A stretch of 64,000 bases of DNA from an uncultured Fibrobacterota bacterium (GTDB lineage: Bacteria; Fibrobacterota; Chitinivibrionia; Chitinivibrionales; FEN-1185). Location of the stretch: assembly GCA_963753345.1 (NCBI GenBank), contig CAVWBU010000021.1, positions 160,001 to 224,000 on the forward strand, read 5' to 3'. Shown here in pieces: positions 6,610 through 64,000 of the stretch (position 1 is its first letter; each line of letters starts with the position of its first letter). The position numbers were made by a program, and so were the translations under genes. A model generated the notes under the pieces. It was not told the DNA's origin, ran no database searches, and worked only from the letters and a program-made list of their open reading frames with translations.

Positions 6610-6666
6610 GGCGGTTTCCTTTCAGTAAAGTATTGATGGTGAACTCATCAAGCACAAAACGGTTAA

Positions 6667-28105: not shown

Positions 28106-28108
28106 ATC

Positions 28109-42706: not shown

Positions 42707-42725
42707 AGAATTAATCAAAATGCCT

Positions 42726-42980: not shown

Positions 42981-43036
42981 TACCATTATTGTACACAAAG
43001 CTGGTTGCCAAGGTGGACGGCCATGATTTAACGACG

Positions 43037-43614: not shown

Positions 43615-43629
43615 AGGGGCTCCTTTAAT

Positions 43630-43680
43630 GGTACGTTATTACGTACCAATTATTATACACTATTCCGTACTATAGCGCAA
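43630..43680 (-). promoter_or_regulatory. TA promoter TTGCGC-N17-TATAAT with operator palindrome
   Basis: -35 at 43675-43680, -10 at 43652-43657; GGTACGT-N4-ACGTACC at 43630-43647. Confidence 0.75.
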
Positions 43681-44411
43681 GGCTTTTTCGGTATTATCGG
43701 GTTCGAACGCCGTATAGCGCTGCCGGTCGCTGCGACCGGTCATGTCTTGAACACGAAGTCTGGCCAGATTTCCATTTCTGGTTGTCTTCACTTGTCTTCC
43801 GTTATGAAGATACGCTGTGGAAAATGCATTCGTCCAGATCTTTCAGGGTTGTCTCCCATGCAGGGGAGAGAGGTAGATCATTTGCATGAAGTAAGAAATG
43901 GTGACATGGATGATCCTGCCGCACTGCGGATTGTGGAAGGCGCAGGTGCGGCATCCGTCGCCGGAAGAGAATCCGCCGCCTGAAGCCTAGGCGTCTGGCC
44001 TCGATTACGGATTCACTTCGACGACGCTCAGTGCAGGCTTCGAGAAAACCTGCGCATGAAAAACCAGCCTTTTTTCAAACTTCGATCTTATTCCGGGAGA
44101 CCGGAATTCTCCGGTTTGACAATGGTTAGGGAGAACACCTATATTTTCCCTTGAAGCAGTTTGGTGTCCCGAAGGCGGAAGCGGGGGGATAGATGAGCGT
44201 CTGTGGAGCTTCGGCGACATCCCGTAACCTTCGGCGAAGGGGATAAAGAAACTTTCTTTGTACGCCCACCCGCTCGCGAAAAACAAATTACCTATCAGTA
44301 TCGGTTGCCGGGATATTGACAGGAGCAATCATAGAGTGTACAATTTGGTTTCCTCTTGTTGTCGCCTGCGAGATGAATTGATTACTCTAGCGGCAGGGTG
44401 CCGAAGTCCAC

Positions 44412-45014
44412 ATGCGAAACATCTCTACTCTCGTTGCCGTTCTTGCTACGTTGGTTCTTGTTGCCTGTTGCGCCCATCTTAGGGGCGTCGAAATGGAATG
44501 GAGGTCGACAGACGATTCCGGGAACTATTCGCCGAGGAATCTCGCAAATTTCGCGGGGCGCACGTACAAACTGGACACGATTGAGGATTGCAGATCTGAG
44601 AAAAAAGATACAATCATTTGGACCGACCACGGCCCTCACACCTGGGACAACCGGCTTATCTACTGGGTAACAACTAAGACTGATATTCCTTCTTTCATCA
44701 TGACCAATTTTCCAAAGGTCTTTGCCATATTCGGTCTTTCTACCTCATCGTCGCCGACCTACGACTACAAGATATCCGGAAAACTTTTGCAATTTGAGGT
44801 GATCGAGAAAGACCTGTACAGAGGAAAAGTAATGATAGAATTCTCAATCCTCGACAAGAACAACGACACGCTTTCCAGGTGTACCGCCATCGGCACGTCA
44901 AACCGATTCGGCCGCGTCTACTCATACGACAATTACATGGAATGTCTTTCGAACGCGGTGAATGCTTGTTTCAATGATTTTCTGTCCAGGTGCGATATCC
45001 CAAAAAGGAAATGA
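44412..45014 (+). CDS. Hypothetical lipoprotein
   Basis: Hydrophobic N-terminus ending LVACC; 200-aa ORF. Confidence 0.7.
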   Translation: MRNISTLVAVLATLVLVACCAHLRGVEMEWRSTDDSGNYSPRNLANFAGRTYKLDTIEDCRSEKKDTIIWTDHGPHTWDNRLIYWVTTKTDIPSFIMTNFPKVFAIFGLSTSSSPTYDYKISGKLLQFEVIEKDLYRGKVMIEFSILDKNNDTLSRCTAIGTSNRFGRVYSYDNYMECLSNAVNACFNDFLSRCDIPKRK

Positions 45015-45237
45015 CTACACCCCTAAAGCAGCTCGCCTTCACTTCACGGTAGCAAACCCGGATCGCGGCCATCGTCCGGTGTCCCTAAGATACGCTTCGG
45101 AAAGCGCGCTCGTCCAGGGGCTTGCGGCAACCTCTCCGCAGTTGCAGACGTTCCTCATTTGACAATAGAGAGCGGAAATACCTATATTTTTTGCCGACGT
45201 CGGTCTCGCCGCACGCCGCAACGCTTCTGAGAGATCC

Positions 45238-46014
45238 ATGAAAAGAATATGCATCTATGCCCACTACGATTCCCGAGGCACGATAAAGGGGTATGTCCGC
45301 CATTGCCTGTCGAATATCCGGAACGAATTCGACGAACTTGTTTTCGTGACCTCCTCCACGCTGGGCCCGTTTGAAAAGAGCAAGATCGCCGGACTTTGCA
45401 CGGCCATACTGGAAGTGGAGAACATTGGCTTTGATTTTTATTCGTGGAAGAAGGGCATCGAAACGGTCCGGGAGCGTCTGAACACCTTCGACGCTCTTGT
45501 CCTCCTCAACTCAAGCGTTTTGGGGCCGGTTTCGCCGCTCGGCAATGTGTTTGCAAAAATGGAGGCGTCGCGTTGCGATTTCTGGGGTATGACGGAGTGC
45601 TTTCTCGTGCGACACCATTTGCAAAGCTACTTTCTCTGCTGCAACGGGCGGATGTGCTCGTCGCGCGCGTTTCGCGAGTATTGGTCGGCGCTCGAACCGC
45701 TGGCTGTCAAGGAGAAAGTGATAAGCGAATACGAAACAGCGTTTACCAGGCATTTCGCGCGCCGTGGTTTCAAGAAGGGCGTCGCCTTCCCGGTGGGAAT
45801 GTTCATTCCCCTTTGGAAACGGATCCTCGACAAAAACCTTGCCAAACGCAACACCACGCTCGTGTTTGCCCCCGAACTGCTGGAGGCGGGAATGCCTTTT
45901 GTCAAGATTCAGCTCTTGGCGTCAAACCCCTTTGGAGCGGATCTGCCGCGCCTCAGGGCATTACTCGAGCAGCGATATCCGGCGGAATACCTCGCCGAGG
46001 CGTGCACGAAATAG
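45238..46014 (+). CDS. Rhamnan synthesis protein F (RgpF)-like protein
   Basis: IYAHYD, ENIGFDFYSW, NSSVLGP, DFWGMT, HLQSYF and MPFVK. Confidence 0.85.
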   Translation: MKRICIYAHYDSRGTIKGYVRHCLSNIRNEFDELVFVTSSTLGPFEKSKIAGLCTAILEVENIGFDFYSWKKGIETVRERLNTFDALVLLNSSVLGPVSPLGNVFAKMEASRCDFWGMTECFLVRHHLQSYFLCCNGRMCSSRAFREYWSALEPLAVKEKVISEYETAFTRHFARRGFKKGVAFPVGMFIPLWKRILDKNLAKRNTTLVFAPELLEAGMPFVKIQLLASNPFGADLPRLRALLEQRYPAEYLAEACTK

Positions 46015-46176: not shown

Positions 46177-47457
46177 CTACTTTGTTTCATTCAAGGTGAA
46201 GCTCCTCACCGTATCCTTCGGCTTCTTCCCCTTGTAAAATTCCCGCCACGCAAAGTAGAACGCGTCGAGGAGTTCCGATTCGGAAAAGTTCTTCGGCTTG
46301 AAAACCACGTTGGCATGATTCCACAGAGAGTAATTCCTGTGCAGCAGCCTGTTCTCACGGACCACCTGCTCACCGAACTTTGTGCCGGGAAACGGGGTCG
46401 GAATGTAGAATTCCGCAAGGTCAATCGCCGCGTCACGGGTGAAGGCAAGGATGCGCTCGGCCACGCCTTTGTCCTGGTTGTCGAAACCGATGCCGAACGA
46501 CCCGAAGAAATGGATGCCGCTGTCTTCGATCATGCGCACGAGGTTCACGGCTGCCGACCACTGCTCTTTGGGGCACTCCTTGTCAAACAGCGTTTGCGAA
46601 ATCCGGTCGAACCCGAACACGGTGTAGATCGAGGCCGTGCCGCCGGCTGCGAGCTTCCGGTAAAACGCGGGGTCGGGCGCCATCATCATGGTGGAGGAGA
46701 GGAATATCTTTATGTCGCCCAGTTCCGCGGTGCGCTCCATGATCGACAGAAGGAATTTTGCGGGTTTCTTGCCGGGGAGCATCACCGTGTCGTCGGTGAA
46801 GTAGAATTCGCGAAAGGGCATGGAGGCGATGTCGGCCAGTATGTGGTCGACCGGCCGCAGCCGAAACAGGGTTCCGCCCATGTAGGGAACCGGGCATCCC
46901 GCGCATGGCGCGGGGCAGCCGCGCATCACCTGCACAAGGTGCGCCTTCCATCGGTACTTGTCGGGCGAGAAAATGCCGCGCTTGGGAATGGGCATCTTTG
47001 ACAGATCGTAATAGGAGCCCGCTTGGTAGCGTTTTTTAAGCGATCCTTGCGCGGCGTCCTTAAGGATGTCGCTCCACACCAGCTCCGCCTCGCCCACGCA
47101 CACCGAATCCGCATGGAGCAGCGCCTCGTCGGCCATTGCGGTCGGGTGGATGCCGCCGATCACGGTTTTTGTTCCGCGCCTGCGGAACCCGTCGGCGATC
47201 TCGTAGGCGCGCTGCGCCTGCGGGGTAAAGCAGCTTATCACAACGAGGTCGATCTTTTCGTCGAAATCGACGGGGGAGATGTTGTCGTCCGTCAAGGCAA
47301 CGTCGATCGAATCCGGCGTGAGCGCCGCAACAATCGGCAGGGCGAGCGACGGCGGCATGGTGTAGTCGCCGATCACATGGTCTTTGAGTTCCTCCCGAAG
47401 GGACCGATGGTCTTCGAGGAACTTCTTGAATTTCGGATATATGAGCCGCAGTTTCAT
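46177..47457 (-). CDS. B12-binding-domain radical SAM protein
   Basis: IGGIHPT..VCVGEAE; RGCPAPCAGC (CxxxCxxC); TPFPGT. Confidence 0.92.
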   Translation of the reverse strand: MKLRLIYPKFKKFLEDHRSLREELKDHVIGDYTMPPSLALPIVAALTPDSIDVALTDDNISPVDFDEKIDLVVISCFTPQAQRAYEIADGFRRRGTKTVIGGIHPTAMADEALLHADSVCVGEAELVWSDILKDAAQGSLKKRYQAGSYYDLSKMPIPKRGIFSPDKYRWKAHLVQVMRGCPAPCAGCPVPYMGGTLFRLRPVDHILADIASMPFREFYFTDDTVMLPGKKPAKFLLSIMERTAELGDIKIFLSSTMMMAPDPAFYRKLAAGGTASIYTVFGFDRISQTLFDKECPKEQWSAAVNLVRMIEDSGIHFFGSFGIGFDNQDKGVAERILAFTRDAAIDLAEFYIPTPFPGTKFGEQVVRENRLLHRNYSLWNHANVVFKPKNFSESELLDAFYFAWREFYKGKKPKDTVRSFTLNETK

Positions 47458-47461
47458 AGTT

Positions 47462-48892
47462 TTATTCCTGCTTCAGTATCATATCCGCCACTGCCTTGCC
47501 GCTCGACATCACATTGTAAATCCCGCCGCCCGCCTTTGTCCAATGCCCGGCCTGATAGAGATTGGGAATATACGTTGTAAACGGCAGCTTGGATCGTCCG
47601 TACAGGTCGCTGGTGTTCTCGAACCCGTACAGGGCGCCGGCCGTGTTGCCCGTGTAGCGTTCGAACGTGTCCGGTGATGCGACTTCGCAGACGCGGATTT
47701 TCGGGGTAAAGTCGCCGAGGAGTTCCTTCGCCTTTTGAATCATGGCGTCGGCGATGCGTTTCTTTTCGTCGTGCCACGCGATGCCCGGCTGCTGCTTCAC
47801 AAGATGGATGAGCGTGATGCATGCGCCGCGGCCCGGGTCAGGCGGTCTTGCAATCACCAGATGGTCGATGTCGGCGGGAAGGCCGCTTCTGATGCGGCGG
47901 TAGATGGCGTCGTGATCGTTCGATCCGAACCACAGGGTAATGTTTTGTTCCGCTATGCCGGCCGCGTCGCCTTCCACGCCGAGGTAAACGCACACCGCGG
48001 ACACCGACGGCGAAAGGTTTTCCAGCCGGCGCAGCCAGAGCGCCTTGCGCGACGGTTCGGGAACGAGCGTGCGATGCAGAAGATAGGGGCTGATGTTCGA
48101 AACGAAAACTCGGGCGGTAATCTCCTCCCCGCGGTCGCCTACGGCGGCGACCACCCTGCCGTGCTCCATCCTGAGAGAGCGGACCGGCCACGACGTGCGC
48201 ACCTCGCCGCCGCAAGAGGTGACCGCGGCCGAAAGCGCCTGCGCGAGCGCGGCGAACCCGCCTTTGACATAATGCGATCCATCACAGGCGTGGGCGATGA
48301 AGATGAACGCGTTGTAGAACGGGGCGATCGACGGCGATGACCCGCCGAACGGCCAGATCGAACCCAGAAGGAACCGCAGCCGCGGGTCGGCAACGAAATG
48401 CTCGATGTACTCCTTGTACGAACCCGCGGCGCTGACGCCGGGGGACGCGAGTGAGGCCTCGCCGCCCGCGAGATTCCCCTTGTACTGCGTAAACAGCCGC
48501 CGCATGTCGTCAAGAATCGCCCGCACGGCAGTGCGTTCATGCGGGAAGTCGCGGCACAGGGAATCCGTGAGCCCGGCCATGTCTGCGGGGAGCGTGTACG
48601 AAAAACCCGGCGAAAGAACGCGGGCCGTGCTGGTGTTCGGGACGATGTCGAGTTTTTTTCGGACGCCGAGCTGCGCAAGCAGCCCGGATACGAAACCGCT
48701 ATCGCCCATGGAGACCGAATGGACCGAGGAATCGAACGTGAAGGAGTTGCGGGAGAATTCCTGCGCGCAGCCGCCGATCCGGGAAAATCGCTCCAGCACC
48801 GCCGTGCGCATGCCCTGCCGCGACAGGAGCGCCGCGCAGGTGAGCCCGCCGATGCCGGATCCGATGACCGCTGCGTCGAAGTCAGTTGACAA
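47462..48892 (-). CDS. Phytoene desaturase/CrtI-like FAD-dependent oxidoreductase
   Basis: VIGSGIGGL, FTFD, SPDTFERYTGNTAGALYG and NLYQAGHW..GGG; probable TTG start overlapping the upstream stop. Confidence 0.88.
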   Translation of the reverse strand: MSTDFDAAVIGSGIGGLTCAALLSRQGMRTAVLERFSRIGGCAQEFSRNSFTFDSSVHSVSMGDSGFVSGLLAQLGVRKKLDIVPNTSTARVLSPGFSYTLPADMAGLTDSLCRDFPHERTAVRAILDDMRRLFTQYKGNLAGGEASLASPGVSAAGSYKEYIEHFVADPRLRFLLGSIWPFGGSSPSIAPFYNAFIFIAHACDGSHYVKGGFAALAQALSAAVTSCGGEVRTSWPVRSLRMEHGRVVAAVGDRGEEITARVFVSNISPYLLHRTLVPEPSRKALWLRRLENLSPSVSAVCVYLGVEGDAAGIAEQNITLWFGSNDHDAIYRRIRSGLPADIDHLVIARPPDPGRGACITLIHLVKQQPGIAWHDEKKRIADAMIQKAKELLGDFTPKIRVCEVASPDTFERYTGNTAGALYGFENTSDLYGRSKLPFTTYIPNLYQAGHWTKAGGGIYNVMSSGKAVADMILKQE

Positions 48893-49757
48893 AGGGAATT
48901 TCCTCGTGGAGAAAGTACCATTGGGCGCACCGGGTTCCGAGCAGCGGCTCCAGGTCGTTGTACAGGGACTGGACCAGCATCGGGTCGTCGGCATCGAGCC
49001 GGTGAAGGCGGAGTTCGAATCGCTCGTCGTCTCCCCTCTCGGCAAAGGCGGTGAAAACACGGGCTCCCGGCTGCGCGAATCGCACCAGCCTGTCCAGGCC
49101 GGCGCCGCCCCACACCTGCCTGCGCAAGAGGGTCACCGGCAGCGAGTACGGCGTCTTTTCGTCGAAGACCGCAAGCAGAACGCCGCCGCGCCTGAGCACC
49201 GCGGCCATGTCGAGCGCCGCCGGCCGGTCCGACCCTATTTCGATGAAATTGACAGGAGCGAACATGCCGGACGCCGCCATTGCGCCGCTGCGCGCGCGGG
49301 CCGCATCCGCGAGGCCCGGGGTCGCAAAGCGCAGCGCGCCGGTGACGGGAATGCCGCGGGCCGCGAGCGCCGGGGCGATGCATTCAACCGCGCCGAAGTG
49401 GCACACCGCGATCACGACGCCGCTTGTGCTTCCCGCGTCGGCCGCAAGCGTTTCGAATTCCGGCGGCATGGCGATACGCTCGGTGAGATAGCGGTGGTAG
49501 TCGCCGGGCGAAAGGCACAGCGGCAGCATTTTTTCGTAGTAGTGCAGCAGGACGTTGTTCTGGATTTCGCGGACGAGCGCGCCGGTGGCGGGGATGGAAA
49601 AGGCCCTGAGGTTCCGTGCGATTACCATGGACTCCTCCGGGTATGCGTCGAACCATTCTCTCCCCTTTGTGAAGATCAGGCTGCGCAGCTCCTCCCTGCT
49701 TTTTCTGGGCAGCGACGCGAGAAAATCCGGTGATTGGAGGAAACCTGAGAGTTTCAT
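48882..49757 (-). CDS. Lysophospholipid/lipid A-type acyltransferase family protein
   Basis: HFGAVE (HxGxxE) motif, LAVFDE and C-terminal QWYFLH. Confidence 0.7.
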   Translation of the reverse strand: MKLSGFLQSPDFLASLPRKSREELRSLIFTKGREWFDAYPEESMVIARNLRAFSIPATGALVREIQNNVLLHYYEKMLPLCLSPGDYHRYLTERIAMPPEFETLAADAGSTSGVVIAVCHFGAVECIAPALAARGIPVTGALRFATPGLADAARARSGAMAASGMFAPVNFIEIGSDRPAALDMAAVLRRGGVLLAVFDEKTPYSLPVTLLRRQVWGGAGLDRLVRFAQPGARVFTAFAERGDDERFELRLHRLDADDPMLVQSLYNDLEPLLGTRCAQWYFLHEEIPFVN

Positions 49758-49857
49758 AGGGTTCAAAAATGGATGGCGGCGCCGAAAAAAGCAAAGCGTC
49801 GGCCCTCAATCATGCGCGCCTTACGCCCGGGAGGGAAGGGCGCAGCAGGCTCCACGG

Positions 49858-50118
49858 TCATTTCTTTTGGGCCAGGTACTTTTCAACGGTCGCGGTACAC
49901 TTGTCGATGGTAACGATATTGGGGAATTCGGTCTCGGGGATCGTGATGCCGAATTTTTTTTCCATGGTTGCCAAAACCTCGAGGAGCGCCATTGAATCGA
50001 GGCCCATGTCGTTGATGAAATGCGCATCGTCGGTGATCTTCTCTTCGCTTATCTCCATGTCTTCCGCGATTTCCTTGATCAGGTCGCGTATGGTTGCCTT
50101 GATGTCGGCCGAATTCAT
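49858..50118 (-). CDS. Acyl carrier protein
   Basis: 86 aa, acidic, DMGLDSM phosphopantetheine site; GGAGAG RBS. Confidence 0.93.
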   Translation of the reverse strand: MNSADIKATIRDLIKEIAEDMEISEEKITDDAHFINDMGLDSMALLEVLATMEKKFGITIPETEFPNIVTIDKCTATVEKYLAQKK

Positions 50119-50207
50119 CAGCTCTCCCTTACATGGTGATGGTATGGCAGCCCGCAGGCGCCCCCGCTCCTGCGCCAGAAGCAATAAAATATAATATGTG
50201 TTCGGCC

Positions 50208-51407
50208 TTAATTTCTGTTTTTGAGAAGAATACTTCCGCAATACCCGTCGCATGAAAAGGAGTTTACGAGCGCATATTCGGCCGACACGGCATGCCGCGT
50301 GTCGGCCACGAGGTCGATCTCGCGGCACAGCGCATAGCGGCCGCCGGTCCCGCTGATCCTGGTATGCTTCAGGTCGCTCAGGGCGCAGGCAAGGGAAACG
50401 CACGGCGAGGCGCCGATGCATTCGCCGGTTTTCGCCTTGTAAGCGGCAACCGGTGTCGCGGGCAGCAGTTCTTCGAGCGCGAGCGCTTCCATTCCGTCGG
50501 CTGCGGCAACGCCGTTTGCGCTTGCGGCCACGAACCCCACGGCCGATAGGGGAATGCCCGCATCTGCGCAGGCCTGTTTCATCGCATGGCGGGCGCCGTC
50601 GCCGCCGGGGTTGAAGCCGCCCGGACCTCTCTTAGGATCGAAGCAGCTGGCAATGCCCGCGATCTCCGCGACAGGAACCGCGCCGCGCGCCTTTGCGGAT
50701 TCCTCTGTTTCAAGACAGAAAACCGCGCAGCCTTCGCCCGCTACGGTGCCGCCCCCGTCCTTTGCAAACGGCAGGAGCGTTCCTGTTGCAGAAAGAAGCC
50801 CTGTCCTTTCGAGCCCCACGATACCGTAATAGCTTATTTCCTCGAGCCCGCCCGCGATAAGGCACTGTTCGTAGCCGCGACGCAGGAACATGATCGCGTA
50901 GGCCAGCGCGTCGAGCCCGGCATTGAAGGTTGTTGAGACGGTTGAACTGAGAGCGCGAGCGGCGTAGCGGATGTTCGCGTTGGAGGCGGGTGAATTGATG
51001 ACCGTATTGGCGAACGCCTGCGGGTTGACATTGTGCGACCCATTGACAATTGCGTCGGACAAAAAGTCGCCGATGCTGGCGACGCTGCCGAACGCCGTGC
51101 CCACGCAAAGGCCGGGCTTGCGGCCGTCCGGCGCGGATTCGAACAGCCCCTTGCACCCCAGTTCGACGGCCGACAGCAGGAGCTTGGTCGCCCGGTCCTT
51201 GGTGCGCAGGCCTTTCTTTCCGAGAATCGCCTCCGGGTCGAAATTGCCTATCGCGAAGGCCTGCCGCGCTTCGGGAAGCGAGTGGAATTCGAAGTCCTTC
51301 ACCGCGGCTGTCTTCGGCGGCGCAAGGAGCGAGGCGGCCATTGCATCCGGGCTTGTGCCCAGACAGGTTACTGCGGCCGCGTGTGTTATGACGATGTTCG
51401 TGTCCAT
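50208..51407 (-). CDS. Ketosynthase-like protein lacking the catalytic triad (chain-length-factor-like)
   Basis: KS fold motifs present, but TTFNAG, ASANG and TGEC replace TACAAG, AHGTG and IGHT. Confidence 0.85.
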   Translation of the reverse strand: MDTNIVITHAAAVTCLGTSPDAMAASLLAPPKTAAVKDFEFHSLPEARQAFAIGNFDPEAILGKKGLRTKDRATKLLLSAVELGCKGLFESAPDGRKPGLCVGTAFGSVASIGDFLSDAIVNGSHNVNPQAFANTVINSPASNANIRYAARALSSTVSTTFNAGLDALAYAIMFLRRGYEQCLIAGGLEEISYYGIVGLERTGLLSATGTLLPFAKDGGGTVAGEGCAVFCLETEESAKARGAVPVAEIAGIASCFDPKRGPGGFNPGGDGARHAMKQACADAGIPLSAVGFVAASANGVAAADGMEALALEELLPATPVAAYKAKTGECIGASPCVSLACALSDLKHTRISGTGGRYALCREIDLVADTRHAVSAEYALVNSFSCDGYCGSILLKNRN

Positions 51408-51416
51408 GCTTCCGCC

Positions 51417-52646
51417 TTATCCCCCGAATTTTCCGAGAACAAGCGTGGAATTGTTGCCGCCGAACGCATACGCGTTCGAGACCGCGACCCGCACCTCGGC
51501 GTTGCGCGCGGTATTGGGCACATAGTCAAGGTCGCAGTCGGGGTCCGGCTCGCGGTAATTGATGGTCGGCAGAATAACGCCCCGGTTGACCATAAGGGCG
51601 CAGGCCGCGGCCTCTATGGCCGAGGCCGCGCCCATGGTATGGCCGATCATGGACTTAATTGACGATACGGGAATCGATTTCGCCCTGTTGCCGAACACGG
51701 CCTTGATGATAAGCGTTTCGGTCTTGTCGTTTTCCTCGGTCCCGGTGCCGTGGGCGCTTATGTAGTCGACGCTTTCGGGCGTTACGGCCGCGTTGGCAAG
51801 CGCCCTTTTCAGGGCAAGGATGCCGCCGCTGCCGGAAGGGTCGGGGATGGTCATCTTGAACGCGTCGCACCCGAGGCCGTAGCCGAGGACCTCGGCGTAG
51901 AGTCTTGCGCCGCGGCTCTTCGCATGAGTCAATGATTCGAGCGCAAGCACGCCCGCGCCTTCGCCCACGCACATGCCGTCGCGGTTTTTGTCGAACGGTC
52001 TGCACAGGTCCTTTGCGGTGGCCATCAGGCGGTTGAACCCGGTGAACGCGATTTTCGAAATCGGGTCGCTGCCGCCGGCGATCGCCACGTCGACAATCCC
52101 GGTGGCGATGAGGTCGAATGCGTAACCGATAGCGTAATTGCCCGCGGCGCAGGCCGTGGGGATCATGATGACCGGTCCGCAAGCCCCCACGCTCCGGGCC
52201 ACGTTTGCGGAAATGACGCCGCACGGGTACTGGGCAGGAAGGTCGGCCGGAACAGCGCCGGGAGCGCCCTGGCCGCGGTACAGCATCTCGATTCCCTGTT
52301 CGAGTATCTGCGGTTCGCCCATAGTGGTGCCCATGCTCACCGCCACGCGGTACGGGTCGAGTTTCAGTTTGTCAAGGCCGGCGTCGCCGAGCGCCATCTT
52401 CGCCGCGGCGCAGGCAAACTGGCTCGAGCGTCCCATGGATGAAATCTGCTGCGGCGAGAGAAATGCGGCGGGTGAGAAGTCCTTCACCTCGGCGCCCACG
52501 CTGGTGCGAAAGCCTGACGTATCAAAGGCGGTGATGGGCGCGATTCCGTTAATGCCTTTGCACGCGGCATTCCAGAATGCTTCGGTGCCTGTGCCGATGG
52601 GGGAGACGACACCCAGTCCTGTGACGACAATCCTGTCTTTTTTCAT
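51417..52646 (-). CDS. fabF: Beta-ketoacyl-ACP synthase II family
   Basis: TACAAG, SAHGTGT, KSMIGH and AFGGNN; intact Cys-His-His. Confidence 0.93.
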   Translation of the reverse strand: MKKDRIVVTGLGVVSPIGTGTEAFWNAACKGINGIAPITAFDTSGFRTSVGAEVKDFSPAAFLSPQQISSMGRSSQFACAAAKMALGDAGLDKLKLDPYRVAVSMGTTMGEPQILEQGIEMLYRGQGAPGAVPADLPAQYPCGVISANVARSVGACGPVIMIPTACAAGNYAIGYAFDLIATGIVDVAIAGGSDPISKIAFTGFNRLMATAKDLCRPFDKNRDGMCVGEGAGVLALESLTHAKSRGARLYAEVLGYGLGCDAFKMTIPDPSGSGGILALKRALANAAVTPESVDYISAHGTGTEENDKTETLIIKAVFGNRAKSIPVSSIKSMIGHTMGAASAIEAAACALMVNRGVILPTINYREPDPDCDLDYVPNTARNAEVRVAVSNAYAFGGNNSTLVLGKFGG

Positions 52647-52767
52647 GAGGCCTGTTCAGATGGAACGATAAACGACAAAAAACGGGCGCGTGCCCGAAGA
52701 AAAGGGCAAAATGCGGCTAAACTTCTAAAATAGTAAAAATAAAGGCGTGATTCAACACAAAGAATAA

Positions 52768-53505
52768 TCAGGCGCTCAGGCCTCCGTCCACGGTTAGTAC
52801 GCTTCCGGTGACATACTGCGCCTTGTCGGAGACGAGAAAGGAGACACAATCGGCCACTTCACGGGGCGTTCCCATCCGCCCGACGGGAATGGATTTCCTG
52901 ATTTCCTCAAGCTGTTTTTCGGTCATTTTCGCGGTCATGTCGGTCTCGATGAAGCCGGGCGCGATGCACACCACCCTCACGCCGGTCTTTGCAACTTCCC
53001 TGGCAAGCGCCCTGGTGAATCCGATGATGCCGGCTTTCGAAGCGCAGTAATTGGTCTGGCCGGCAACTCCCGAAATACCGCCCACCGAGCCGATGTTCAC
53101 CACGCACCCTTTTTTGTTCTTCATGAAATGGCCGATGAGCGCGCGGGTCACGTTGAAATAGCCGGTGAGATTGGTGGCGATGACGTCGTCCCAATCCTCC
53201 TTCGGCATGATGAACAGGCTCTTGTCGCGTGTGATCCCCGCGTTGTTGACAAGCGCGTCGATCCCGCCGAGCTTCTCTTTTGCAAATGCGACCAGCTTGT
53301 CCACATGGTCCGGCCGGGAAACATCGGCCTCGAACGGCCACACCATGCACCCATCTTTGGAAAGGCGGTCGGCAAGCTTCACCGAAGCTTCCCTGCCGCT
53401 CCTGTAACTGAACACCACGCGGTTGCCTTCGGCAGCCAGCGTTTCGACTATTGCTCTGCCGATCCCCTTGGACCCGCCAGTAATGATGATATTTTTGCCT
53501 GACAT
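52768..53505 (-). CDS. fabG: 3-oxoacyl-ACP reductase
   Basis: TGGSKGIG, NNAGITRD, NYCASK and PGFIETDM. Confidence 0.93.
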   Translation of the reverse strand: MSGKNIIITGGSKGIGRAIVETLAAEGNRVVFSYRSGREASVKLADRLSKDGCMVWPFEADVSRPDHVDKLVAFAKEKLGGIDALVNNAGITRDKSLFIMPKEDWDDVIATNLTGYFNVTRALIGHFMKNKKGCVVNIGSVGGISGVAGQTNYCASKAGIIGFTRALAREVAKTGVRVVCIAPGFIETDMTAKMTEKQLEEIRKSIPVGRMGTPREVADCVSFLVSDKAQYVTGSVLTVDGGLSA

Positions 53506-53624
53506 GATTACTCCTTAAGAGAAGATTCACCACAAAGACACAGAGAAGAAAAATTCACTCAGTTTACAAACCGGAGACAAAGATACAAAATCATAAAGAA
53601 GCAAGGTGAAAGTGCAACTTAATT

Positions 53625-53752
53625 TACAACCGGTGCTCGTGGGTGCCGCCGCAACAATGCTTGGTCTCGCAGCTGCTTTGTCAAGGCGGCCACCCAGGAG
53701 GGGGTGCCGGAGAACGCCGAAGGCGCTCGCAGGCAGGGGGATACTTCCCCCA
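53625..53752 (-). repeat. Structured repeat family A, copy 5
   Basis: GGGGGAAGTATCCCCCT...ACCCCCTCCTGGGTGGCCGCC-N34-GGCGGCACCCAC, about 28 nt after the radical SAM stop. Confidence 0.88.
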
Positions 53753-53779
53753 CATACATACTCTTCTATCATCAACTAT

Positions 53780-55123
53780 TCAACTTTTCAACCCTTTTCT
53801 CACCGCATCCTTCACCTTCTGCGAATATTCCCGTGATTTTAAAATATTTTCCGCCTTCTGCCGGAACGAAGACAGCGATTCTTCCAGGTCGGCTCCGGCA
53901 AAAAACTCCTTCCACAGCCTTATAAACCCCTGCCGCAGTTTGTCCTCCGAAATAAGCTTCGGCCTGAACACGATGTTGGCGCAATTGTACTTTTTCCAGT
54001 CGCGCGGAAGGATGAACCGGCCTTCCGCCTCGATGCGCTTCCAGAACGGCGTTCCCGGAAAGGGCGTCGCGATGAAGAACTCGGCGGTTTTCACCTGCGC
54101 CTGCCTGCAGAAGTCAAGGATGGTGTCGAACTGGTCGTTCGCCCATGGTGTCGAACCCCACGCCGAACGACCCGAAGAACCGGATGCCGCGGTCTTCGAG
54201 GGCGGCGAGCGAGGTCGAGCGTACGCCGCCATACTGCCGGGTCGCGGCGATAGAACCGCACGCTCACCGGGTCGCTCGCGAACACCGTGTACATGCTCGC
54301 CGCGCCCGCCGAGGCCAGGGCGTCGAGGAACGCGGGATCGTTGTGCATCGCCGGCGAGCAGGACAGAAACATCCTCACGCCGAGCCCTTTGATGCGCTCG
54401 CATAAGTCAATCATGTACCTGGTGATGCGCGGCCGGTTGAGCATCACCATGTCGTCGGTGACGTAGAATTCCTTGCCCGCGAGGGCGGCGATTTCCGCGA
54501 CCACGGATTCAAGAGGCCGCAGGCGGATTTTCGTGTCCTGGTACAGCGGTATATTGCACCACTCGCACCCGAACGGGCAGCCGCGCGTGATCGACACGAG
54601 CGACGCGTGCCAGTCGTATTTGTCCTCAACGTCGAAAATGCCGGGCTTTGCGGATGCGATCTGCTCCGGCAGCGGTACGGTTTCCGCTTTGTATAGCTTT
54701 TTGAGAGAGCCGGCCGCAACATCGGCTAGGATCTCCGGCCATACCGTGTCGGCCTCGCCCACGCACACGGCTCGTGCAATGGAGCGCCGCCTCCTCGGGC
54801 ATAGTTGACGGATGCATGCCGCCGGCGATCACGGTTTTCCCGCGCCGCAGAAACTCGTCGCCGATCTCGTAGGCAAACCCCGCCTGCGGCGTGAAATAGC
54901 TTATGGCGACGACGTCGGCGTCGTCGCTAAAGTCAACCGGCTCGATGTTCTGGTCTATCACCCGGAAGGAGACGTCCGCCGGCAGGAGGTTGGCGAGAAT
55001 GGGAATGCCCAGCGCCGGCGGCATGCGGAACGCCCACGTGGCGGCAACCGCGGGCAGCTCCGCAAGCTCGGGATAGGTTTCGAGGAATTTTTCGAACCTG
55101 GGATAGACAAAGGTGACTTTCAT
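53780..55123 (-). CDS. B12-binding-domain radical SAM protein, interrupted by three single-base insertions (near 54770, 54201, 54138)
   Basis: Paralogue of 46177..47457; AGGMHPS, RGCPFGCEWC, FFGSFGVGFD and TPFPGT lie in successive frames. Confidence 0.88.
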
Positions 55124-55285: not shown

Positions 55286-55415
55286 AAAGGGCAAACGACA
55301 TAAGGGAAGGTGCGCAGCACCATTACCAAACCCTTAGGGAACGCAGTGACAAAGGGCAAACGACATAATGGAAGGTGCGCAGCACCATTACCAAACCCTT
55401 AAGGAACGCAGTGAC
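55286..55415 (+). repeat. Family G, tandem pair of 65-nt units
   Basis: aaagggcaaacgacataa.ggaaggtgcgcagcaccattaccaaaccctta.ggaacgcagtgac at 55286 and 55351. Confidence 0.92.
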
Positions 55416-55428
55416 AAAAGGGGCCAAC

Positions 55429-56115
55429 GTGAAGGAATATCCTAAAAACCTGCCGGTATCCGTTGCGTTTCTTGTTGCGCTGTTCTTCAATGCAGGGATT
55501 TTCGCGGCGCCTGCCGCGATTCCCCGGACCGCCGTTTCCGATACCGTCAAACCGGACGCCGTGTACGTCCCCAATTCGTCCGCCGAAAAAACCGCGGAGC
55601 CGGTGGTTATTCCAAACTCCAGGGCAGGAGGCATCGACTCGGCCTCAATGGAGCATCCCTCCGAGACCATCATCGAAGAGGGACAGAGCCCGCGTCAAGA
55701 CCTTTCAGCGAAGCATGCGGCTCCGGTTTCCGGCAACCAACGGGTGCGTCACAAGGGAAGAATTATCACCGGCGCCGCGTTGTTCGGCGTTTCCTACGGC
55801 CTGGCGCTCGCCGTCTCAACCACGGTGATCTCGGAAGGCTCCACATCGTCAGGCAGCAACGCGGCAGGATACCTGTGCATCCCCGTGCTCGGCCCGATAA
55901 TCCTGTATTTTTCCGAGCCTTCCTCCGGCGCCGACGCCACGCCCGTGGCGCTTCTCTGCGCAGGCTGGTCAGTGGCGCAGGGCATCGGTCTCTGGCTGCT
56001 TATTTCCGGGATTGTGGGAACTCCTGCGACGTCGCAAATGTCGGCGCTGCCTTTCACCGTCGAGCCGCTTGTCATGAAGGACAGGGCAGGGCTCACGTTC
56101 AGAATGCGGCTGTAA
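55429..56115 (+). CDS. Hypothetical membrane protein with signal peptide
   Basis: GTG start; signal peptide, low-complexity linker, three hydrophobic segments. Confidence 0.7.
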   Translation: MKEYPKNLPVSVAFLVALFFNAGIFAAPAAIPRTAVSDTVKPDAVYVPNSSAEKTAEPVVIPNSRAGGIDSASMEHPSETIIEEGQSPRQDLSAKHAAPVSGNQRVRHKGRIITGAALFGVSYGLALAVSTTVISEGSTSSGSNAAGYLCIPVLGPIILYFSEPSSGADATPVALLCAGWSVAQGIGLWLLISGIVGTPATSQMSALPFTVEPLVMKDRAGLTFRMRL

Positions 56116-56165
56116 GCAGGGGATGCACGAGGCTGGTCTGACATTGCAGAATGGTGCGGGCAATC

Positions 56166-56351
56166 ATGAAGAAATTCTCAAGTCGGACCCAATACCGTAT
56201 GCGATCCGCACAAAAGCGCCCATCTCTTAAAACCTTGTTACTTTCATTTTCCATCATTCTGCTCGTGCTTGCCATCACGTTCGCAAGAATGTTCCGGACA
56301 TTCCACTCATTCTCTCCGAAATCATCTGCAAGCCATCCTCGCTTCAGATAG
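56166..56351 (+). CDS. Small basic single-pass membrane protein
   Basis: 61 aa with one TM segment; fits between co-directional genes. Confidence 0.4.
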   Translation: MKKFSSRTQYRMRSAQKRPSLKTLLLSFSIILLVLAITFARMFRTFHSFSPKSSASHPRFR

Positions 56352-56452
56352 TGTTGCAGTACCGGTATTGAGGTTTTGGTTCTTGTCCAATGTTATATTT
56401 TTGTGATCATTTAACCATCAACTCATTCGTTCTTCAGAAGAGAGAGAACAGC

Positions 56453-56971
56453 ATGCCCTCTGAAACACTTCCTTTGACCAAGCGGCCCCTCGATATTGCC
56501 ATTGTCGGGTTTTTCCTTTTCAATGCCGTGTTCATCACCTACTTCTTCGACCTCGAACAGATTGTGATACCCGACACGTCGCATTTTATCTACCCGCTGT
56601 GGCCTCCGCGTTTTCTCGTCGACACGGCGCACTGGTGGGGAAGGCATTTTGATCCGCTCCTCTATGCGCGACCGGTGTGGTGGCGAGCGACGATATGGAT
56701 CGATGTGCTCCTTTTCGGCCCGTTCTACTTTGTCGCAATTTATGCATTTGTAAAAGGCAGGAACTGGATACGCGTTCCCAGCCTTCTGTACTCGGCGGTG
56801 ATGCTCACCAACGTCACCATCATTCTGAGCGAAGAGATAGGGGGGCCGCACGCAACGCCCGCGCTGATGGCCGTGATCGGCGCAAATGCCTCGTGGATCA
56901 TTTTTCCCGTTCTTATCATCCAGCGCATGTGGCGCAGCGAGCATCCGTTTTCGCACGAAGCGTCGCGCTGA
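56453..56971 (+). CDS. EXPERA (emopamil-binding/TM6SF2-like) domain membrane protein
   Basis: Four TM helices; DLEQ, WW..HFDPLL..RPVW..IWID and N..WIIFP. Confidence 0.75.
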   Translation: MPSETLPLTKRPLDIAIVGFFLFNAVFITYFFDLEQIVIPDTSHFIYPLWPPRFLVDTAHWWGRHFDPLLYARPVWWRATIWIDVLLFGPFYFVAIYAFVKGRNWIRVPSLLYSAVMLTNVTIILSEEIGGPHATPALMAVIGANASWIIFPVLIIQRMWRSEHPFSHEASR

Positions 56972-57004
56972 CTTCATCCAACAACGGCGGCGGGAACAAG
57001 AACC

Positions 57005-61322: not shown

Positions 61323-62450
61323 TCAGCTCACTTTTCTCTGAAACGTCAGCAGCGACGCGCCGAACACCACGGCGCCGATGGCGAGCATGGCGAGGCCCTG
61401 CGGCCACAGCTCCGCAAATCCGCTGCCCTTGAGGAACATTTCGCGCAGGATAAACATGAAGTACCGAAGGGGGTTAATCACGGTCACCTTCTGCACCCAC
61501 ACCGGCAGGTTTTCGAGCGGAAGGAAAAACCCCGACAGAAACAGAAAGAAGATGAGGATGAACCACAGCAGGAACAGCACCTGCTGTGCGTTGCGCACCA
61601 CTGTCGAAACAAGGATTCCCACGCCGAGCGAACTCGTCATGTAGATGAGGCCGAACAGGAGCACGATGAAGAAGTTGCCGTGGAACGGAACGCGGAACCA
61701 CAGCATGGCCGAGGCGAGGACCGCGGTCAGCTCGAACAGGCCGATGATAATGTAGGGAACAATTTTGCCGAGCACCACGTGCACGGGCGACAGCGGCGTC
61801 ACCATGAGCTGTTCGAGCGTGCCGTTCTCCTTTTCCTTGACTATAGAGAACGCCGTGAGGATCGCGGTGATCATGGTGACGAGAATCACGGCAAACGCCG
61901 GCACCATGTACCACGTGGACTTGAGCATGGGGTTGTACAGAATAACGGGCCGCACCTCCACGGGCAACACATTTCTGATGGTCAGGCCGCGCGCCGCAAG
62001 CTTCGCCTTGAGAAAAGAGAGACTCCATCCCATGACGATCGAGTTGACGTAGCCGCTCGCAATGTTCGAGGAATTAGCGTCCTGGCCGTCGATAAAGAGT
62101 GAAAGATCGGCGCCCGACGTTGCGGAGAGGTTCTTGGCGAAATCCGCGGGGATGATGAGCGCCAGCTTCGCGTCGCCCGCGTCGAGGCGGGAGCGGCAGT
62201 CGGCCTCGCTTGCAGCGTAGCCGGCGAAGCGGAAGAGCTTGTTGTGGAGCACCGACTGGACAAGCGACACGCTCTGGGGTGTATTGCTTCTGTCAAGTAC
62301 TGTTATCGTGGTGTTCTTCACCTCGGTGGTGAGGGCGTAGCCGAGCACGAACATCTGCAGGAACACGGGCAAAATGATGAGCCGGATGGTGAGCGGGTCC
62401 GAGCGGATCTGCGTGAATTCCTTCCAGATGATGAGGCGTAAAAACTTCAT
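61323..62450 (-). CDS. ABC-2 type exporter permease (YbhR-like)
   Basis: KEFTQI, YNP, EKENGTLEQLMVTP and LSGFFLP. Confidence 0.9.
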   Translation of the reverse strand: MKFLRLIIWKEFTQIRSDPLTIRLIILPVFLQMFVLGYALTTEVKNTTITVLDRSNTPQSVSLVQSVLHNKLFRFAGYAASEADCRSRLDAGDAKLALIIPADFAKNLSATSGADLSLFIDGQDANSSNIASGYVNSIVMGWSLSFLKAKLAARGLTIRNVLPVEVRPVILYNPMLKSTWYMVPAFAVILVTMITAILTAFSIVKEKENGTLEQLMVTPLSPVHVVLGKIVPYIIIGLFELTAVLASAMLWFRVPFHGNFFIVLLFGLIYMTSSLGVGILVSTVVRNAQQVLFLLWFILIFFLFLSGFFLPLENLPVWVQKVTVINPLRYFMFILREMFLKGSGFAELWPQGLAMLAIGAVVFGASLLTFQRKVS

Positions 62451-63553
62451 TGTTTCACCTGGAACTTCCTGACGGAAACGGCCAGAAGGAAAAGCCCCAT
62501 GCAGCCCAGCACGAGCATGGGCTGCCACAGCACCGCGAGCCCCACGCCCTTGAGAATGATGCCGCGCACGATTTCGAGGAAATAGGTGGCGGGGACGATG
62601 TGGGCCAGCCATTGCAGCCACAGCGGCAGGCTCGGGAGGGGAAACATGAATCCTGACAGAAGCACGGTGGGCATAACGGTCACGGGCAGCACGATCATCA
62701 TGGCGTGCTCCTGCTTGCGCGATATGGTGCTGATGAGCAGGCCGAGTGCAAGGGCAGTGAAAATGTAGATGAGGCTCGCCGCTGAAAGCAAAAGCAGGCT
62801 GCCGTTTACCACCACGCCGAACACGAAATATCCCACCAGCAGGATGAGCGCGCCGTCAATGGCCGCGAGCGCAATGTAGGGCGTGATCTTGCCGATCATG
62901 ATCTCGGCCGGGCGTATGGGCGACACGAGCATCTGTTCCATGGTGCCGAGTTCCTTCTCGCGCGTGAGCGTGAGCGAGGTGAGCATGGCCGAGATCATCA
63001 TGAGAATGATCACCATGAGGCCGGGCACGAAATACATGGCGCTCTTCTGCTGCGGGTTGTACAAAATAACCTGGCGCACATTGACGGCCGCGGGCACGGG
63101 CACATGCAGGAGATCGAGCACGCATTTCTGCAGGAAAGGCTCCACCGCGTTGCGCAGGATGGTGCCGAGGTTCTGGTCCGATCCGTCAATAAGCACCTGG
63201 ACCGATGCGGGAGAGCCCGGCCGCCGCAGGTCGGCGGTAAAGTGCGGGGAGAAGCGGAACAGCGCCTTGATATGGCGCTGACGGAACAGTGCGTCCGGGT
63301 TCGGCACGGAATTTACCACGCCCGTAACCTTGAACAGGCTGCTTTGGTCGATGGCCCGGATCAGCAGCGCCGTTTCGGGCGTGGGCGAGGGGTCTTCCAC
63401 CATCACTGCCACGTCGTTGATGTTCACGTCGAGCGCGTAGCCGTAGAGGAACATCATGAACACCGGCATGGCGAGCACGATGAGCAGGGTCTGCCAGTCA
63501 CGCAGAATGTGCCAGACTTCTTTACGGATAAGAGCCATTATGCGCGGGTTCAC
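62447..63553 (-). CDS. ABC-2 type exporter permease (YbhS-like)
   Basis: KEVWHILRD, YNP, EKELGTMEQ and LSGFMFP. Confidence 0.9.
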   Translation of the reverse strand: MNPRIMALIRKEVWHILRDWQTLLIVLAMPVFMMFLYGYALDVNINDVAVMVEDPSPTPETALLIRAIDQSSLFKVTGVVNSVPNPDALFRQRHIKALFRFSPHFTADLRRPGSPASVQVLIDGSDQNLGTILRNAVEPFLQKCVLDLLHVPVPAAVNVRQVILYNPQQKSAMYFVPGLMVIILMMISAMLTSLTLTREKELGTMEQMLVSPIRPAEIMIGKITPYIALAAIDGALILLVGYFVFGVVVNGSLLLLSAASLIYIFTALALGLLISTISRKQEHAMMIVLPVTVMPTVLLSGFMFPLPSLPLWLQWLAHIVPATYFLEIVRGIILKGVGLAVLWQPMLVLGCMGLFLLAVSVRKFQVKQ

Positions 63554-64000
63554 CGGCCGCCCCCTTCCACGATGGCAAGGAACGCGTCGAGGAGCGTGTC
63601 GCAGCGGTGTCGCTTCTTGAGCGCCTGCGGCGAGTCGATGGCCGCGATTTTGCCGCTGATCATGATCGAAATCCGGTGGCAGTATTCCGCTTCGTCCATG
63701 TGGTGCGTGGTGACGAAAATGGTGGTGCCGCCCCGGGACAGGGACTGGATAAGGTCCCAGAAATTGCGCCGGCTTATGGGGTCAACCGATCCGGTGGGCT
63801 CGTCGAGGAACAGGATTTCCGGTTTGTGAAGATTGGCGCAGGCTAGGCTCAGCTTTTGCTGCCATCCCCACGGCAGGGTGCCGGTGATCCGGGGCAAGAG
63901 GTCGGCAAGGCCGAGGAACTCCGACATTTCCGCCGATGCGCGCGGCGAGTTCATTCCCGGAAAGCCCGTAGAGCGAGCCGAAAAGTCTGAGGTTGTCGCG
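63550..64000 (-). CDS. ABC transporter ATP-binding protein, 5' end outside window; one extra base near 63933
   Basis: LFLDEPTGSVDP and VTTHHMDEAE; the upstream part RDNLRLFGSLYG is in another frame. Confidence 0.9.
   Translation of the reverse strand, partial: ATTSDFSARSTGFPGMNSPRASAEMSEFLGLADLLPRITGTLPWGWQQKLSLACANLHKPEILFLDEPTGSVDPISRRNFWDLIQSLSRGGTTIFVTTHHMDEAEYCHRISIMISGKIAAIDSPQALKKRHRCDTLLDAFLAIVEGGGR

Follow-up and report, generated by a model that had tools for sequence, protein, structure and literature searches.

A conserved ladderane-type fatty acid synthesis cluster with cobalamin radical SAM enzymes in an uncultured Fibrobacterota bacterium

Eight genes that lie side by side in the genome of an uncultured Fibrobacterota bacterium encode the parts of a lipid-forming line. 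They occupy positions 46177-55123 of a 64,000-nucleotide stretch of contig CAVWBU010000021.1 (positions 160,001 to 224,000; assembly GCA_963753345.1), here called the window. We find that they form a real, conserved cluster, a variant of the ladderane-type type II fatty acid synthesis (FASII) kind, which is known but uncharacterised. We lean toward reading it as a dedicated type II line, similar to fatty acid synthase (FAS), on the same chassis as the gene set called ‘Cluster I’ in anaerobic ammonium-oxidising (anammox) bacteria. Its product is probably a tailored membrane lipid, not a proven ladderane.

According to a recent preprint, Cluster I consists of KustE3603-3608, encoding amxACP, amxFabZ, amxFabF2, amxFabFmut, a phytoene-dehydrogenase-like protein and a B12 radical S-adenosylmethionine (SAM) enzyme (bioRxiv 10.64898/2026.05.19.726425). 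Ladderane biosynthesis is unsolved, anammox bacteria not being genetically tractable and no in vitro synthesis having been achieved. The same preprint calls Cluster I unique to ladderane producers (bioRxiv 10.64898/2026.05.19.726425).

Results

The ketosynthase pair is of the anammox Cluster I type

Open reading frame (ORF) listing and scans with Pfam and NCBIfam models recovered eight co-directional genes on the minus strand, in the order that a first-pass annotation of the sequence had given: a B12-binding radical SAM gene (rSAM-A), fabG, an active ketosynthase (KS), a dead KS homologue resembling a chain-length factor (CLF), an acyl carrier protein (ACP), an acyltransferase, a CrtI-like oxidoreductase and a second radical SAM gene (rSAM-B) (Table 1). 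The order holds, with the correction that rSAM-A is not a single open frame. Spacing within the cluster runs from an 11-nt overlap up to 275 nt.

Among structures in the PDB, the KS matched chain B of entry 9s5h best (483.8 bits), ahead of the ishigamide enzyme Iga11 (358 bits), Bacillus subtilis FabF (347 bits) and Escherichia coli FabF (~280 bits). The CLF in turn matched chain C of the same entry (169.6 bits, next match 103.7). Counted from the printed alignments, the KS is about 55% identical to its chain and the CLF about one third. Entry 9s5h contains two KS-like chains that differ from each other, with an ACP of 80 aa as a further chain in the sister entry 9s5i. At the catalytic triad positions, chain C has Val, Asn and Glu, as the preprint reports for amxFabFmut (bioRxiv 10.64898/2026.05.19.726425). 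Of the 14 Brocadia fulgida amxFabF2 residues named there, 13 fit chain B at an offset of +5 (Ala110, Ala164, Cys165, Phe203, Ser296, Ala297, His298, His335, Met337, Glu344, Asn389, Asn390 and Phe394), Ile112 being off by one, and all three amxFabFmut residues (Phe135, Thr138 and Val139) fit chain C at an offset of -1. Because residue numbering, triad and two-chain content agree, we infer that 9s5h is the B. fulgida amxFabF2/amxFabFmut heterodimer of Cluster I, an identity drawn from the numbering and not from the entry title. A text search for 9S5H returned no relevant paper, and the main text of the preprint gives no PDB code.

The first-pass annotation had called the second KS dead, and in the alignments its Cys-His-His triad is indeed replaced (Cys to Phe, His to Ser, His to Glu). 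Its residues F132, T135 and V136 are invariant in 21/21 sequences and align with the amxFabFmut tunnel residues Phe135/Thr138/Val139, and a predicted model (pLDDT 87.2) has the FabF fold (TM 0.88). The window thus holds an active FabF-like KS and, 9 nt away, a triad-less homologue, of the amxFabF2/amxFabFmut type. The amxFabF heterodimer decarboxylates malonyl-ACP only when paired, as the preprint states (bioRxiv 10.64898/2026.05.19.726425), and the window’s KS and CLF are likewise predicted to form a heterodimer.

The first-pass annotation would have been undone by a KS that grouped with housekeeping FabF in a genome with no other FAS locus, and this KS does not group there. It falls below the housekeeping fabF equivalog TIGR03150 (425.8 bits, cutoff 493.75), lies above the cutoff of the broad PRK07314 subfamily (406.7 vs 387) and stays below the ‘polyketide KS’ model NF005490 (208.9 vs 445). 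A homologue search with the KS listed at least 120 matches at 63-100% identity; all 18 that carried names were metagenome-assembled genomes (MAGs) of Chitinivibrionia or Fibrobacter, and anammox proteins were absent among the matches listed.

The gene set recurs in Chitinivibrionia and beyond

When an alignment of 15 homologues was run against species-representative genomes, 146 relatives were returned, the best 80 of which lie in 73 loci. Loci were fetched through the radical SAM gene, their gene content was read by tblastn of the window proteins, and radical SAMs with at least 60% identity were counted as A-type. The closest named rSAM-B homologues come from Chitinivibrionales and Chitinispirillaceae MAGs, in agreement with the Fibrobacterota origin that had been guessed from the letters. 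The four closest relatives (L001-L004, 78-94% identity in rSAM-B) all carry the window’s exact gene order (4/4), with rSAM-A intact and FabZ absent. Recurrence in other genomes was a further point on which the earlier proposal hung, and the set, found again in these four and in varied form at further loci, is no chance grouping.

KS, CLF and ACP together, which we refer to as the core, were found in the fetched stretch of 18/25 A-type loci, including two from Spirochaetota (L054 and L058); at least three of the seven A-type loci lacking the full core are cut by contig ends. The 46 B-type loci divide into nine with the core, 14 with the acyltransferase and no complete core, five with only the CrtI-like gene and 18 in which rSAM-B stands alone. 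In 11 of the 14, the acyltransferase is the sole cluster gene beside rSAM-B. The stand-alone group includes loci from Planctomycetota and ‘Brocadiia’ MAGs, and all six Planctomycetota-type loci belong to it. Across the 20 core loci, FabG occurs in 18, FabZ in 14, the CrtI-like enzyme in 15, the acyltransferase in 10, rSAM-A in 18 and rSAM-B in nine. Since L026 and L033 have the core and rSAM-B without rSAM-A, a B-only version exists naturally. Fibrobacterota, Myxococcota and Planctomycetota are among the sources of the loci, and none of the 73 is from a named anammox genus.

Individual loci carry additions. L010 has a metallo-beta-lactamase-fold gene (7798-8793), L026 a second CrtI-like gene (6924-8423), and L003 a third cobalamin radical SAM of 694 aa (5537-7621) between ACP and acyltransferase, whose best NCBIfam match is the KedN5 methyltransferase family (92 bits, cutoff 700). 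Remnants of a third radical SAM, of the metallo-beta-lactamase-fold gene or of FabZ were sought in the window by tblastn, and the best E was 0.59. In a Bacteroidota MAG (L051:10001-20184), a 44% radical SAM homologue lies beside a flexirubin/aryl-polyene-like set of aromatic amino acid lyase, FabG, KS, ACP, LpxL-type acyltransferase, O-methyltransferase, thioesterase and a second KS. In a Paludibacteraceae locus (L049:10001-18142), a homologue lies near an AMP-dependent ligase, a 4Fe-4S protein, an AAT-family acyltransferase and two CrtI-like genes, a neighbourhood that recalls the ‘phenylacetyl-CoA ligase’ synteny of Kuenenia and Desulfotalea in the published account (PMC2649909).

Two paralogous radical SAM clades lie outside the ladderane model and have relatives fused to KS

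Both radical SAMs have the B12-binding region and CxxxCxxC motif noted in the first-pass annotation (CPFGCEWC and CPAPCAGC; matches to Pfam PF02310 and PF04055), and they are paralogous, as it proposed, at 43-45% identity over long aligned pieces. Their N-terminal B12-binding domain and CxxxCxxC core are those of class B (cobalamin-dependent) radical SAM enzymes, and cofactor binding is predicted accordingly from these features. Neither reaches TIGR04072 (‘rSAM_ladder_B12’, cutoff 360 bits), a model that we take to have been built on anammox genes: rSAM-B scored 37.1 bits and the middle piece of rSAM-A 30.4, and the orthologues and homologues scanned scored 36.7-53.9. The HpnR, HpnJ and BchE models gave 17-39 bits. 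A ladderane-type radical step or product is not supported, and we see no sign of cyclobutane chemistry.

The closest solved sequence to the rSAM-B profile is the glutamine C-methyltransferase QCMT (9ccb, 43.6 bits). rSAM-B has 908 homologues at E<=1e-3; a HMMER search with intact rSAM-A returned 12,974 representative clusters at E<=1e-3 and 893 at 1e-30. The ESM Atlas gave for rSAM-A only generic B12 radical SAM clusters (Fibrobacterota, Myxococcota and Thermoplasmatota) and no lead. In a FastTree phylogeny of 59 rows hand-picked across clades, with 58 omitted and the fusion rows P0393 and P0394 on a long branch, the A clade has a support of 94 and the B clade of 96.

Among the homologues of rSAM-A, 55 are longer proteins, 49 of them fusions of a B12 radical SAM to KS (P0395-P0443, mostly ~1250 aa, some representing tens of member sequences) and six fusions of a radical SAM to a CrtI-like enzyme (P0390-P0394 and P0241, mostly ~930 aa). 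The three named members are, by their sources, Verrucomicrobiota and Omnitrophota proteins. In P0404, the one radical SAM-KS fusion checked, the radical SAM spans residues 1-~410, an active KS 440-841 and a triad-less KS 852-1250; in its CrtI half, P0241 shares 43% identity with the window’s CrtI-like enzyme. Some single fusion records may be gene-calling artefacts, but the radical SAM-KS group is large, suggesting that the radical SAM works in physical contact with KS/CLF, on carrier-bound intermediates. Such architectures suggest tailoring while the chain sits on its carrier. The predicted-complex score of KS with rSAM-B was 0.00, which is evidence neither way.

The dehydratase has been lost from a subclade

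The window’s FabG scores 253 bits against the flexirubin reductase FlxB (cutoff 340). Its ACP matches canonical ACPs at 44 bits, 7auf, presumably an anammox ACP, at 38 and the ACP chain 9s5i_E at 37.7. The specialised amxACP and amxFabZ of Cluster I have no equivalents here, the ACP being nearer to canonical proteins and FabZ being absent from the window. Family scans found no enoyl reductase among the cluster genes, and no fabH, fabD, fabI or acc genes in the window.

That no dehydratase lies in the cluster had been recognised from the sequence, and we found neither the gene nor a remnant (FabZ tblastn, best E = 2.1). In distant Chitinivibrionia, however, a 145-aa FabZ is encoded between fabG and KS (FabA-like Pfam match at 1e-25 to 2e-28). 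It passes TIGR01750 (159.4 bits vs 155.15) and is closer to 6n3p, deposited as FabZ (131 bits), than to 7qv0/8ay* (~100 bits), which we take to be anammox FabZ. FabZ is missing from the window and L001-L004 and present in 14/20 core loci, suggesting that its absence is a loss in one subclade and not a feature of the system. The earlier reading of the absence, a dehydratase ‘borrowed or not needed’, needs changing to that extent.

In the 121-nt gap between fabG and KS, where relatives have FabZ, a G+C-rich hairpin followed by a T run lies at 52683-52696 on the minus strand; terminator-like sites are no commoner in the window than in shuffles (13 vs 13.3). Promoter-like sites number 7 where 3.2 are expected. 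Neither count is used as evidence.

The acyltransferase has a PatA/LpxM fold and the CrtI-like enzyme is divergent

The window’s acyltransferase gave no Pfam match. Its orthologues match PF03279 at 1e-9 to 2e-7, and its profile matches LpxM (5kn7) at E 8.4e-5. In Foldseek, the AlphaFold (AF2) model (pLDDT 92.4) matched PatA (E 1.6e-12, TM 0.66-0.78) and LpxM (E 2.5e-11). The HxGxxE motif singled out earlier, H123-x-G125-x-x-E128, is invariant in 19/19 aligned homologues; H-x4-D/E is the catalytic motif of such acyltransferases. With the fold and motif of PF03279 (LpxL, LpxM, PatA), the 294-aa protein appears from the model to belong with the membrane-associated glycolipid acyltransferases.

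The CrtI-like enzyme, whose TTG start overlaps the acyltransferase stop, scores 138.1 bits against crtI_fam, below the cutoff of 238.1, and in the PDB it matches CrtD (4rep, 50.6 bits) and CrtI (4dgk, 45.1 bits). By these scores it is a divergent family member.

The upstream radical SAM gene is broken in this genome

In tblastn with rSAM-B as query, the pieces of rSAM-A occupy three frames, and its Pfam matches (B12-binding 1.5e-9, Radical_SAM 4.1e-10, DUF4070 9e-4) fall on three separate ORF pieces. Compared with the intact L004 orthologue (91% DNA identity), it has three single-base (+1) insertions, near 54768, 54209 and 54139, and translation from the ATG at 55123 would end at 54626. With the insertions ignored, rSAM-A is 95.1% identical to L004 in amino acids and its ratio of nonsynonymous to synonymous substitution rates (dN/dS) is 0.109. 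This matches its neighbours (dN/dS of 0.04-0.19 across all eight genes), suggesting either very recent breaks or errors of assembly. By our own estimate, three random errors in one 1.3-kb gene of a 64-kb window, with the other long ORFs whole, would be rare; the gene is either a pseudogene or an assembly error. Because rSAM-B is the only intact one of the cluster’s two radical SAMs in this genome, the product here would be made without the rSAM-A step.

Surrounding genes

Table 1. Genes of the cluster and a neighbouring transporter, with positions in the window.
Feature	Coordinates	Strand	Basis and remarks
rSAM-A, B12-binding radical SAM, A-type clade	53780..55123	-	Three frames: pseudogene or assembly error
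fabG-type 3-oxoacyl-ACP reductase, 245 aa	52768..53505	-	TIGR01830 305.3 bits (cutoff 297.75); adh_short_C2 1.7e-67
Active KS, amxFabF2 type, 409 aa	51417..52646	-	Cys-His-His present; best PDB match 9s5h_B, 483.8 bits
Catalytically dead KS homologue, CLF-like, 399 aa	50208..51407	-	Triad replaced; best PDB match 9s5h_C, 169.6 bits
ACP, 86 aa	49858..50118	-	PP-binding 2e-12
LpxL/LpxM/PatA-family membrane acyltransferase, 294 aa	48882..49766	-	H-x4-E motif; fold match
CrtI-family FAD oxidoreductase, 476 aa	47462..48892	-	Amino_oxidase 4.7e-22; TTG start at 48892
rSAM-B, intact B12-binding radical SAM, 426 aa, B-type clade	46177..47457	-	B12-binding 4.1e-12; Radical_SAM 8.6e-7
ABC-2 transporter genes, possibly associated	61323..63954	-	ABC2_membrane_3 and ABC_tran matches

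L002 (5-673) and L003 (3-347) each have a homologue of the ABC-2 permease (83-86%) whose end lies immediately upstream of rSAM-A, on that gene’s strand. The window’s ABC-2 genes are instead set apart from the cluster by a 5-kb plus-strand block; their transporter may export the cluster product. The genes at 55375-58737 in this block (a 246-aa ORF without a family, an EXPERA/EBP-superfamily protein, a short-chain dehydrogenase/reductase and a steroid-reductase-like DUF1295 protein) sit between the cluster and methyltransferase/ABC-2 genes. Neither they nor the LamG gene that follows (59261-60382) had a tblastn homologue in L001-L003; the 246-aa ORF is common to the window and L004. The block may be another lipid-modifying set.

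On the other side of the cluster, the ORFs at 41666-46014 match no Pfam family and G+C is 0.48-0.52, as against 0.59-0.64 in the cluster. The last gene of this stretch encodes an RgpF (rhamnan synthesis) protein of 258 aa, perhaps truncated, because only positions 1-197 of the 503-position profile are covered. A riboflavin operon (ribD, ribE, ribBA and ribH domains) lies at 26956-30434. Rfam gave 0 matches at the gathering threshold anywhere in the window, and so no flavin mononucleotide (FMN) riboswitch was detected upstream of it.

Discussion

A proposed line and what weighs against it

We propose that the active KS and its dead partner would act as a KS/CLF heterodimer that, with ACP and FabG, builds a chain on the carrier. 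Dehydration would be supplied here by a borrowed housekeeping FabZ, where relatives bring their own. Without an enoyl reductase gene in the cluster, the chain probably keeps at least some of its double bonds, and the CrtI-like flavoenzyme may alter its unsaturation. The cobalamin radical SAM would then form a C-C bond at an unactivated carbon, most likely with the chain on carrier or KS. Most characterised cobalamin radical SAM enzymes are methylases, which makes C-methylation the likeliest reaction; ring closure is possible. Finally, the PatA/LpxM-like acyltransferase would transfer the finished chain to a membrane lipid or glycolipid.

A bolder version, which we think rather unlikely though worth stating, is that the A and B radical SAMs mark out a kind of fatty-acid synthase not described before, one with ‘on-line’ radical tailoring, in which rings or branches are installed on KS/CLF-ACP during elongation. 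The operon would be its Cluster I chassis version and the product a new carbocyclic or multiply branched membrane lipid. If this were true, the stepwise ‘ring while elongating’ model could be tested outside anammox bacteria, in a lineage with cultured members.

Several points weigh against a dedicated line on the Cluster I chassis. The likeness of rSAM-B to QCMT is weak at 43.6 bits and says little about the reaction, and none of the 149 representatives nearest to rSAM-A reached a curated NCBIfam radical SAM family at 1e-40, so that no characterised relative anchors the chemistry. In 18/46 B-type loci rSAM-B stands alone, and its substrate may therefore lie outside this line. Fetching the loci through the radical SAM biases the linkage counts toward it, and they cannot show that every KS/CLF pair has one. 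FabG, ACP and the relatives’ FabZ look canonical, and some of the flux is perhaps ordinary fatty acid. With rSAM-A broken and FabZ absent, the line is perhaps impaired here. Lastly, Chitinispirillum alkaliphilum, which may or may not carry the cluster, is described as having ordinary fatty acids and two unidentified polar lipids.

Alternative readings

A true ladderane pathway, in which Chitinivibrionia would make fused cyclobutanes or close analogues, has the KS/CLF pair in its favour, which is most like that of anammox Cluster I, and the parallel with Cluster I as the preprint describes it (ACP, FabZ in relatives, KS, dead KS, phytoene-dehydrogenase-like protein and B12 radical SAM). The first-pass annotation’s resemblance to anammox ladderane clusters is real and specific for KS/CLF (484 and 170 bits) and breaks down for the radical SAMs, ACP and relatives’ FabZ. 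Both radical SAMs fall far short of TIGR04072 (37 and 30 vs 360 bits), the relatives’ FabZ is nearer to 6n3p than to the presumed anammox structures, and no named anammox genus is represented in the 73 related loci. In the literature, moreover, ladderanes are called unique to anammox bacteria, a link between cluster and ladderane is unproven even there, and Desulfotalea with similar clusters had none (PMC2649909). We regard this pathway as very improbable. The opposite reading, a housekeeping locus for fatty-acid elongation, we hold to be more improbable still: FabG passes its equivalog cutoff, KS passes PRK07314 and ACP looks canonical, but a dead KS, a CrtI-like enzyme, two B12 radical SAMs and an LpxM/PatA-like acyltransferase are foreign to housekeeping FAS, KS fails the fabF equivalog cutoff, and the window has no fabH, fabD, fabI or acc. 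The CLF, the tailoring genes and a fabF score under the cutoff led us to reject it.

The cluster might instead make a conjugated polyene or an aryl-polyene/flexirubin-like lipid pigment, with KS/CLF, ketoreductase and dehydratase working without an enoyl reductase and the acyltransferase anchoring the polyene in the membrane. The missing enoyl reductase would fit, as would the polyene-forming Iga11 as the second-best structure match of KS (358 bits), the 253 bits of FabG to FlxB, and the LpxL-type acyltransferase in the flexirubin-like cluster of L051, beside a 44% radical SAM homologue. The KS, however, is far nearer to amxFabF2 than to Iga11, the FlxB score stays below its cutoff of 340 and NF005490 is missed by a wide margin (208.9 vs 445), and neither the window nor the inspected Chitinivibrionia loci encode a starter-unit enzyme (lyase or adenylase), so that we did not assign the cluster to the aryl polyene/flexirubin class and think such a product quite unlikely. 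The broken rSAM-A raises a different doubt, namely that the locus in this genome is a remnant in decay, without a product, its upstream radical SAM dead and its FabZ lost. Three frameshifts in one 1.3-kb gene with seven intact neighbours would be expected of such a remnant, as would the lack of FabZ or any trace of it and the 5-kb block that parts the cluster from ABC-2 genes which abut it in L002 and L003. Yet dN/dS of rSAM-A is that of its neighbours, which makes the breaks very recent unless they arose in assembly; FabZ is missing from L001-L004 too, with all genes intact; and the core with rSAM-B as its one radical SAM of the pair, as in L026 and L033, is a natural version. Decay is thus unlikely, and we retain the dedicated line on the Cluster I chassis.

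Comparison with known systems

The kind of cluster is already known, since Cluster I, the clusters of Rattray 2009 and the antiSMASH ‘ladderane’ reports share it. In the published text of Rattray 2009, FASII clusters with SAM-radical and phytoene-dehydrogenase-like genes are reported from Desulfotalea psychrophila, Geobacter and Pelobacter (PMC2649909). Compared by description only, these resemble the window in FabF paralogues with altered active sites, a radical SAM and amine-oxidase-family enzymes. A phenylacetyl-CoA ligase and a membrane protein, both absent from the window, belong to those clusters as well; L049 has an AMP-ligase by its radical SAM homologue. From non-anammox MAGs, antiSMASH ‘ladderane’ biosynthetic gene clusters have been reported in Fibrobacterota, Verrucomicrobiota, Omnitrophota, Myxococcota, Planctomycetota and others, with function stated as unknown (10.1101/2022.12.20.521206, PMC11968836). 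The five phyla named were recovered here too, Fibrobacterota, Myxococcota and Planctomycetota among the loci and Verrucomicrobiota and Omnitrophota among the fusion proteins; those papers give no gene-level anatomy.

The radical SAMs share an N-terminal B12-binding domain and CxxxCxxC core with the OxsB/TsrM/TokK/QCMT class and the lipid modifiers GrsA/B and HpnP/HpnR, as described in the literature (PMC12931638, PMC13459092); even so, rSAM-B reaches just 43.6 bits to QCMT. The acyltransferase resembles PatA, the phosphatidylinositol mannoside (PIM) acyltransferase, and LpxM, the lipid A secondary acyltransferase, in fold (TM 0.66-0.78, E 1e-12 to 1e-10) and in its H-x4-D/E motif, and differs from them in having only 15-19% identity; the window protein also stays below Pfam reporting. 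The highly reducing type II polyketide synthase (PKS) of ishigamide, Iga11/Iga12, has the same KS/CLF heterodimer logic, and its KS lies 126 bits further away than amxFabF2. We know of no radical SAM or CrtI-like partner for the ishigamide PKS.

What appears new is the amxFabF-type KS/CLF, the two-clade radical SAM family outside TIGR04072, the modular unit of rSAM-B and acyltransferase, and the fusions. Our literature searches found no paper describing these four features, though supplements of the preprint may hold relevant tables, and a search combining radical SAM, chain length factor and cobalamin returned only the anammox preprint and an unrelated HemN-like paper.

Cluster I itself remains the closest comparison. 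The two have in common an active and a triad-less KS, the CLF tunnel residues, ACP, a CrtI/phytoene-dehydrogenase-like flavoenzyme and a cobalamin radical SAM, with FabZ in relatives of the window; for the flavoenzyme and the radical SAM, the likeness is one of family. The window differs in its two radical SAM paralogues outside TIGR04072, its added FabG and PatA/LpxM-like acyltransferase, an ACP and relatives’ FabZ nearer to canonical proteins, and a host that is not an anammox bacterium. The Cluster I KS/CLF chassis with a CrtI-like enzyme and cobalamin radical SAMs is thus widespread in Chitinivibrionia and present in Spirochaetota. Because it is found in these groups, and in fused forms in Verrucomicrobiota/Omnitrophota, the chassis alone is a weaker ladderane marker, and ‘ladderane’ calls outside anammox bacteria should be taken to denote a family of uncharacterised lipids. 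These lineages also offer simpler systems in which to learn the chemistry of such clusters, among them single polypeptides that unite radical SAM, KS and CLF.

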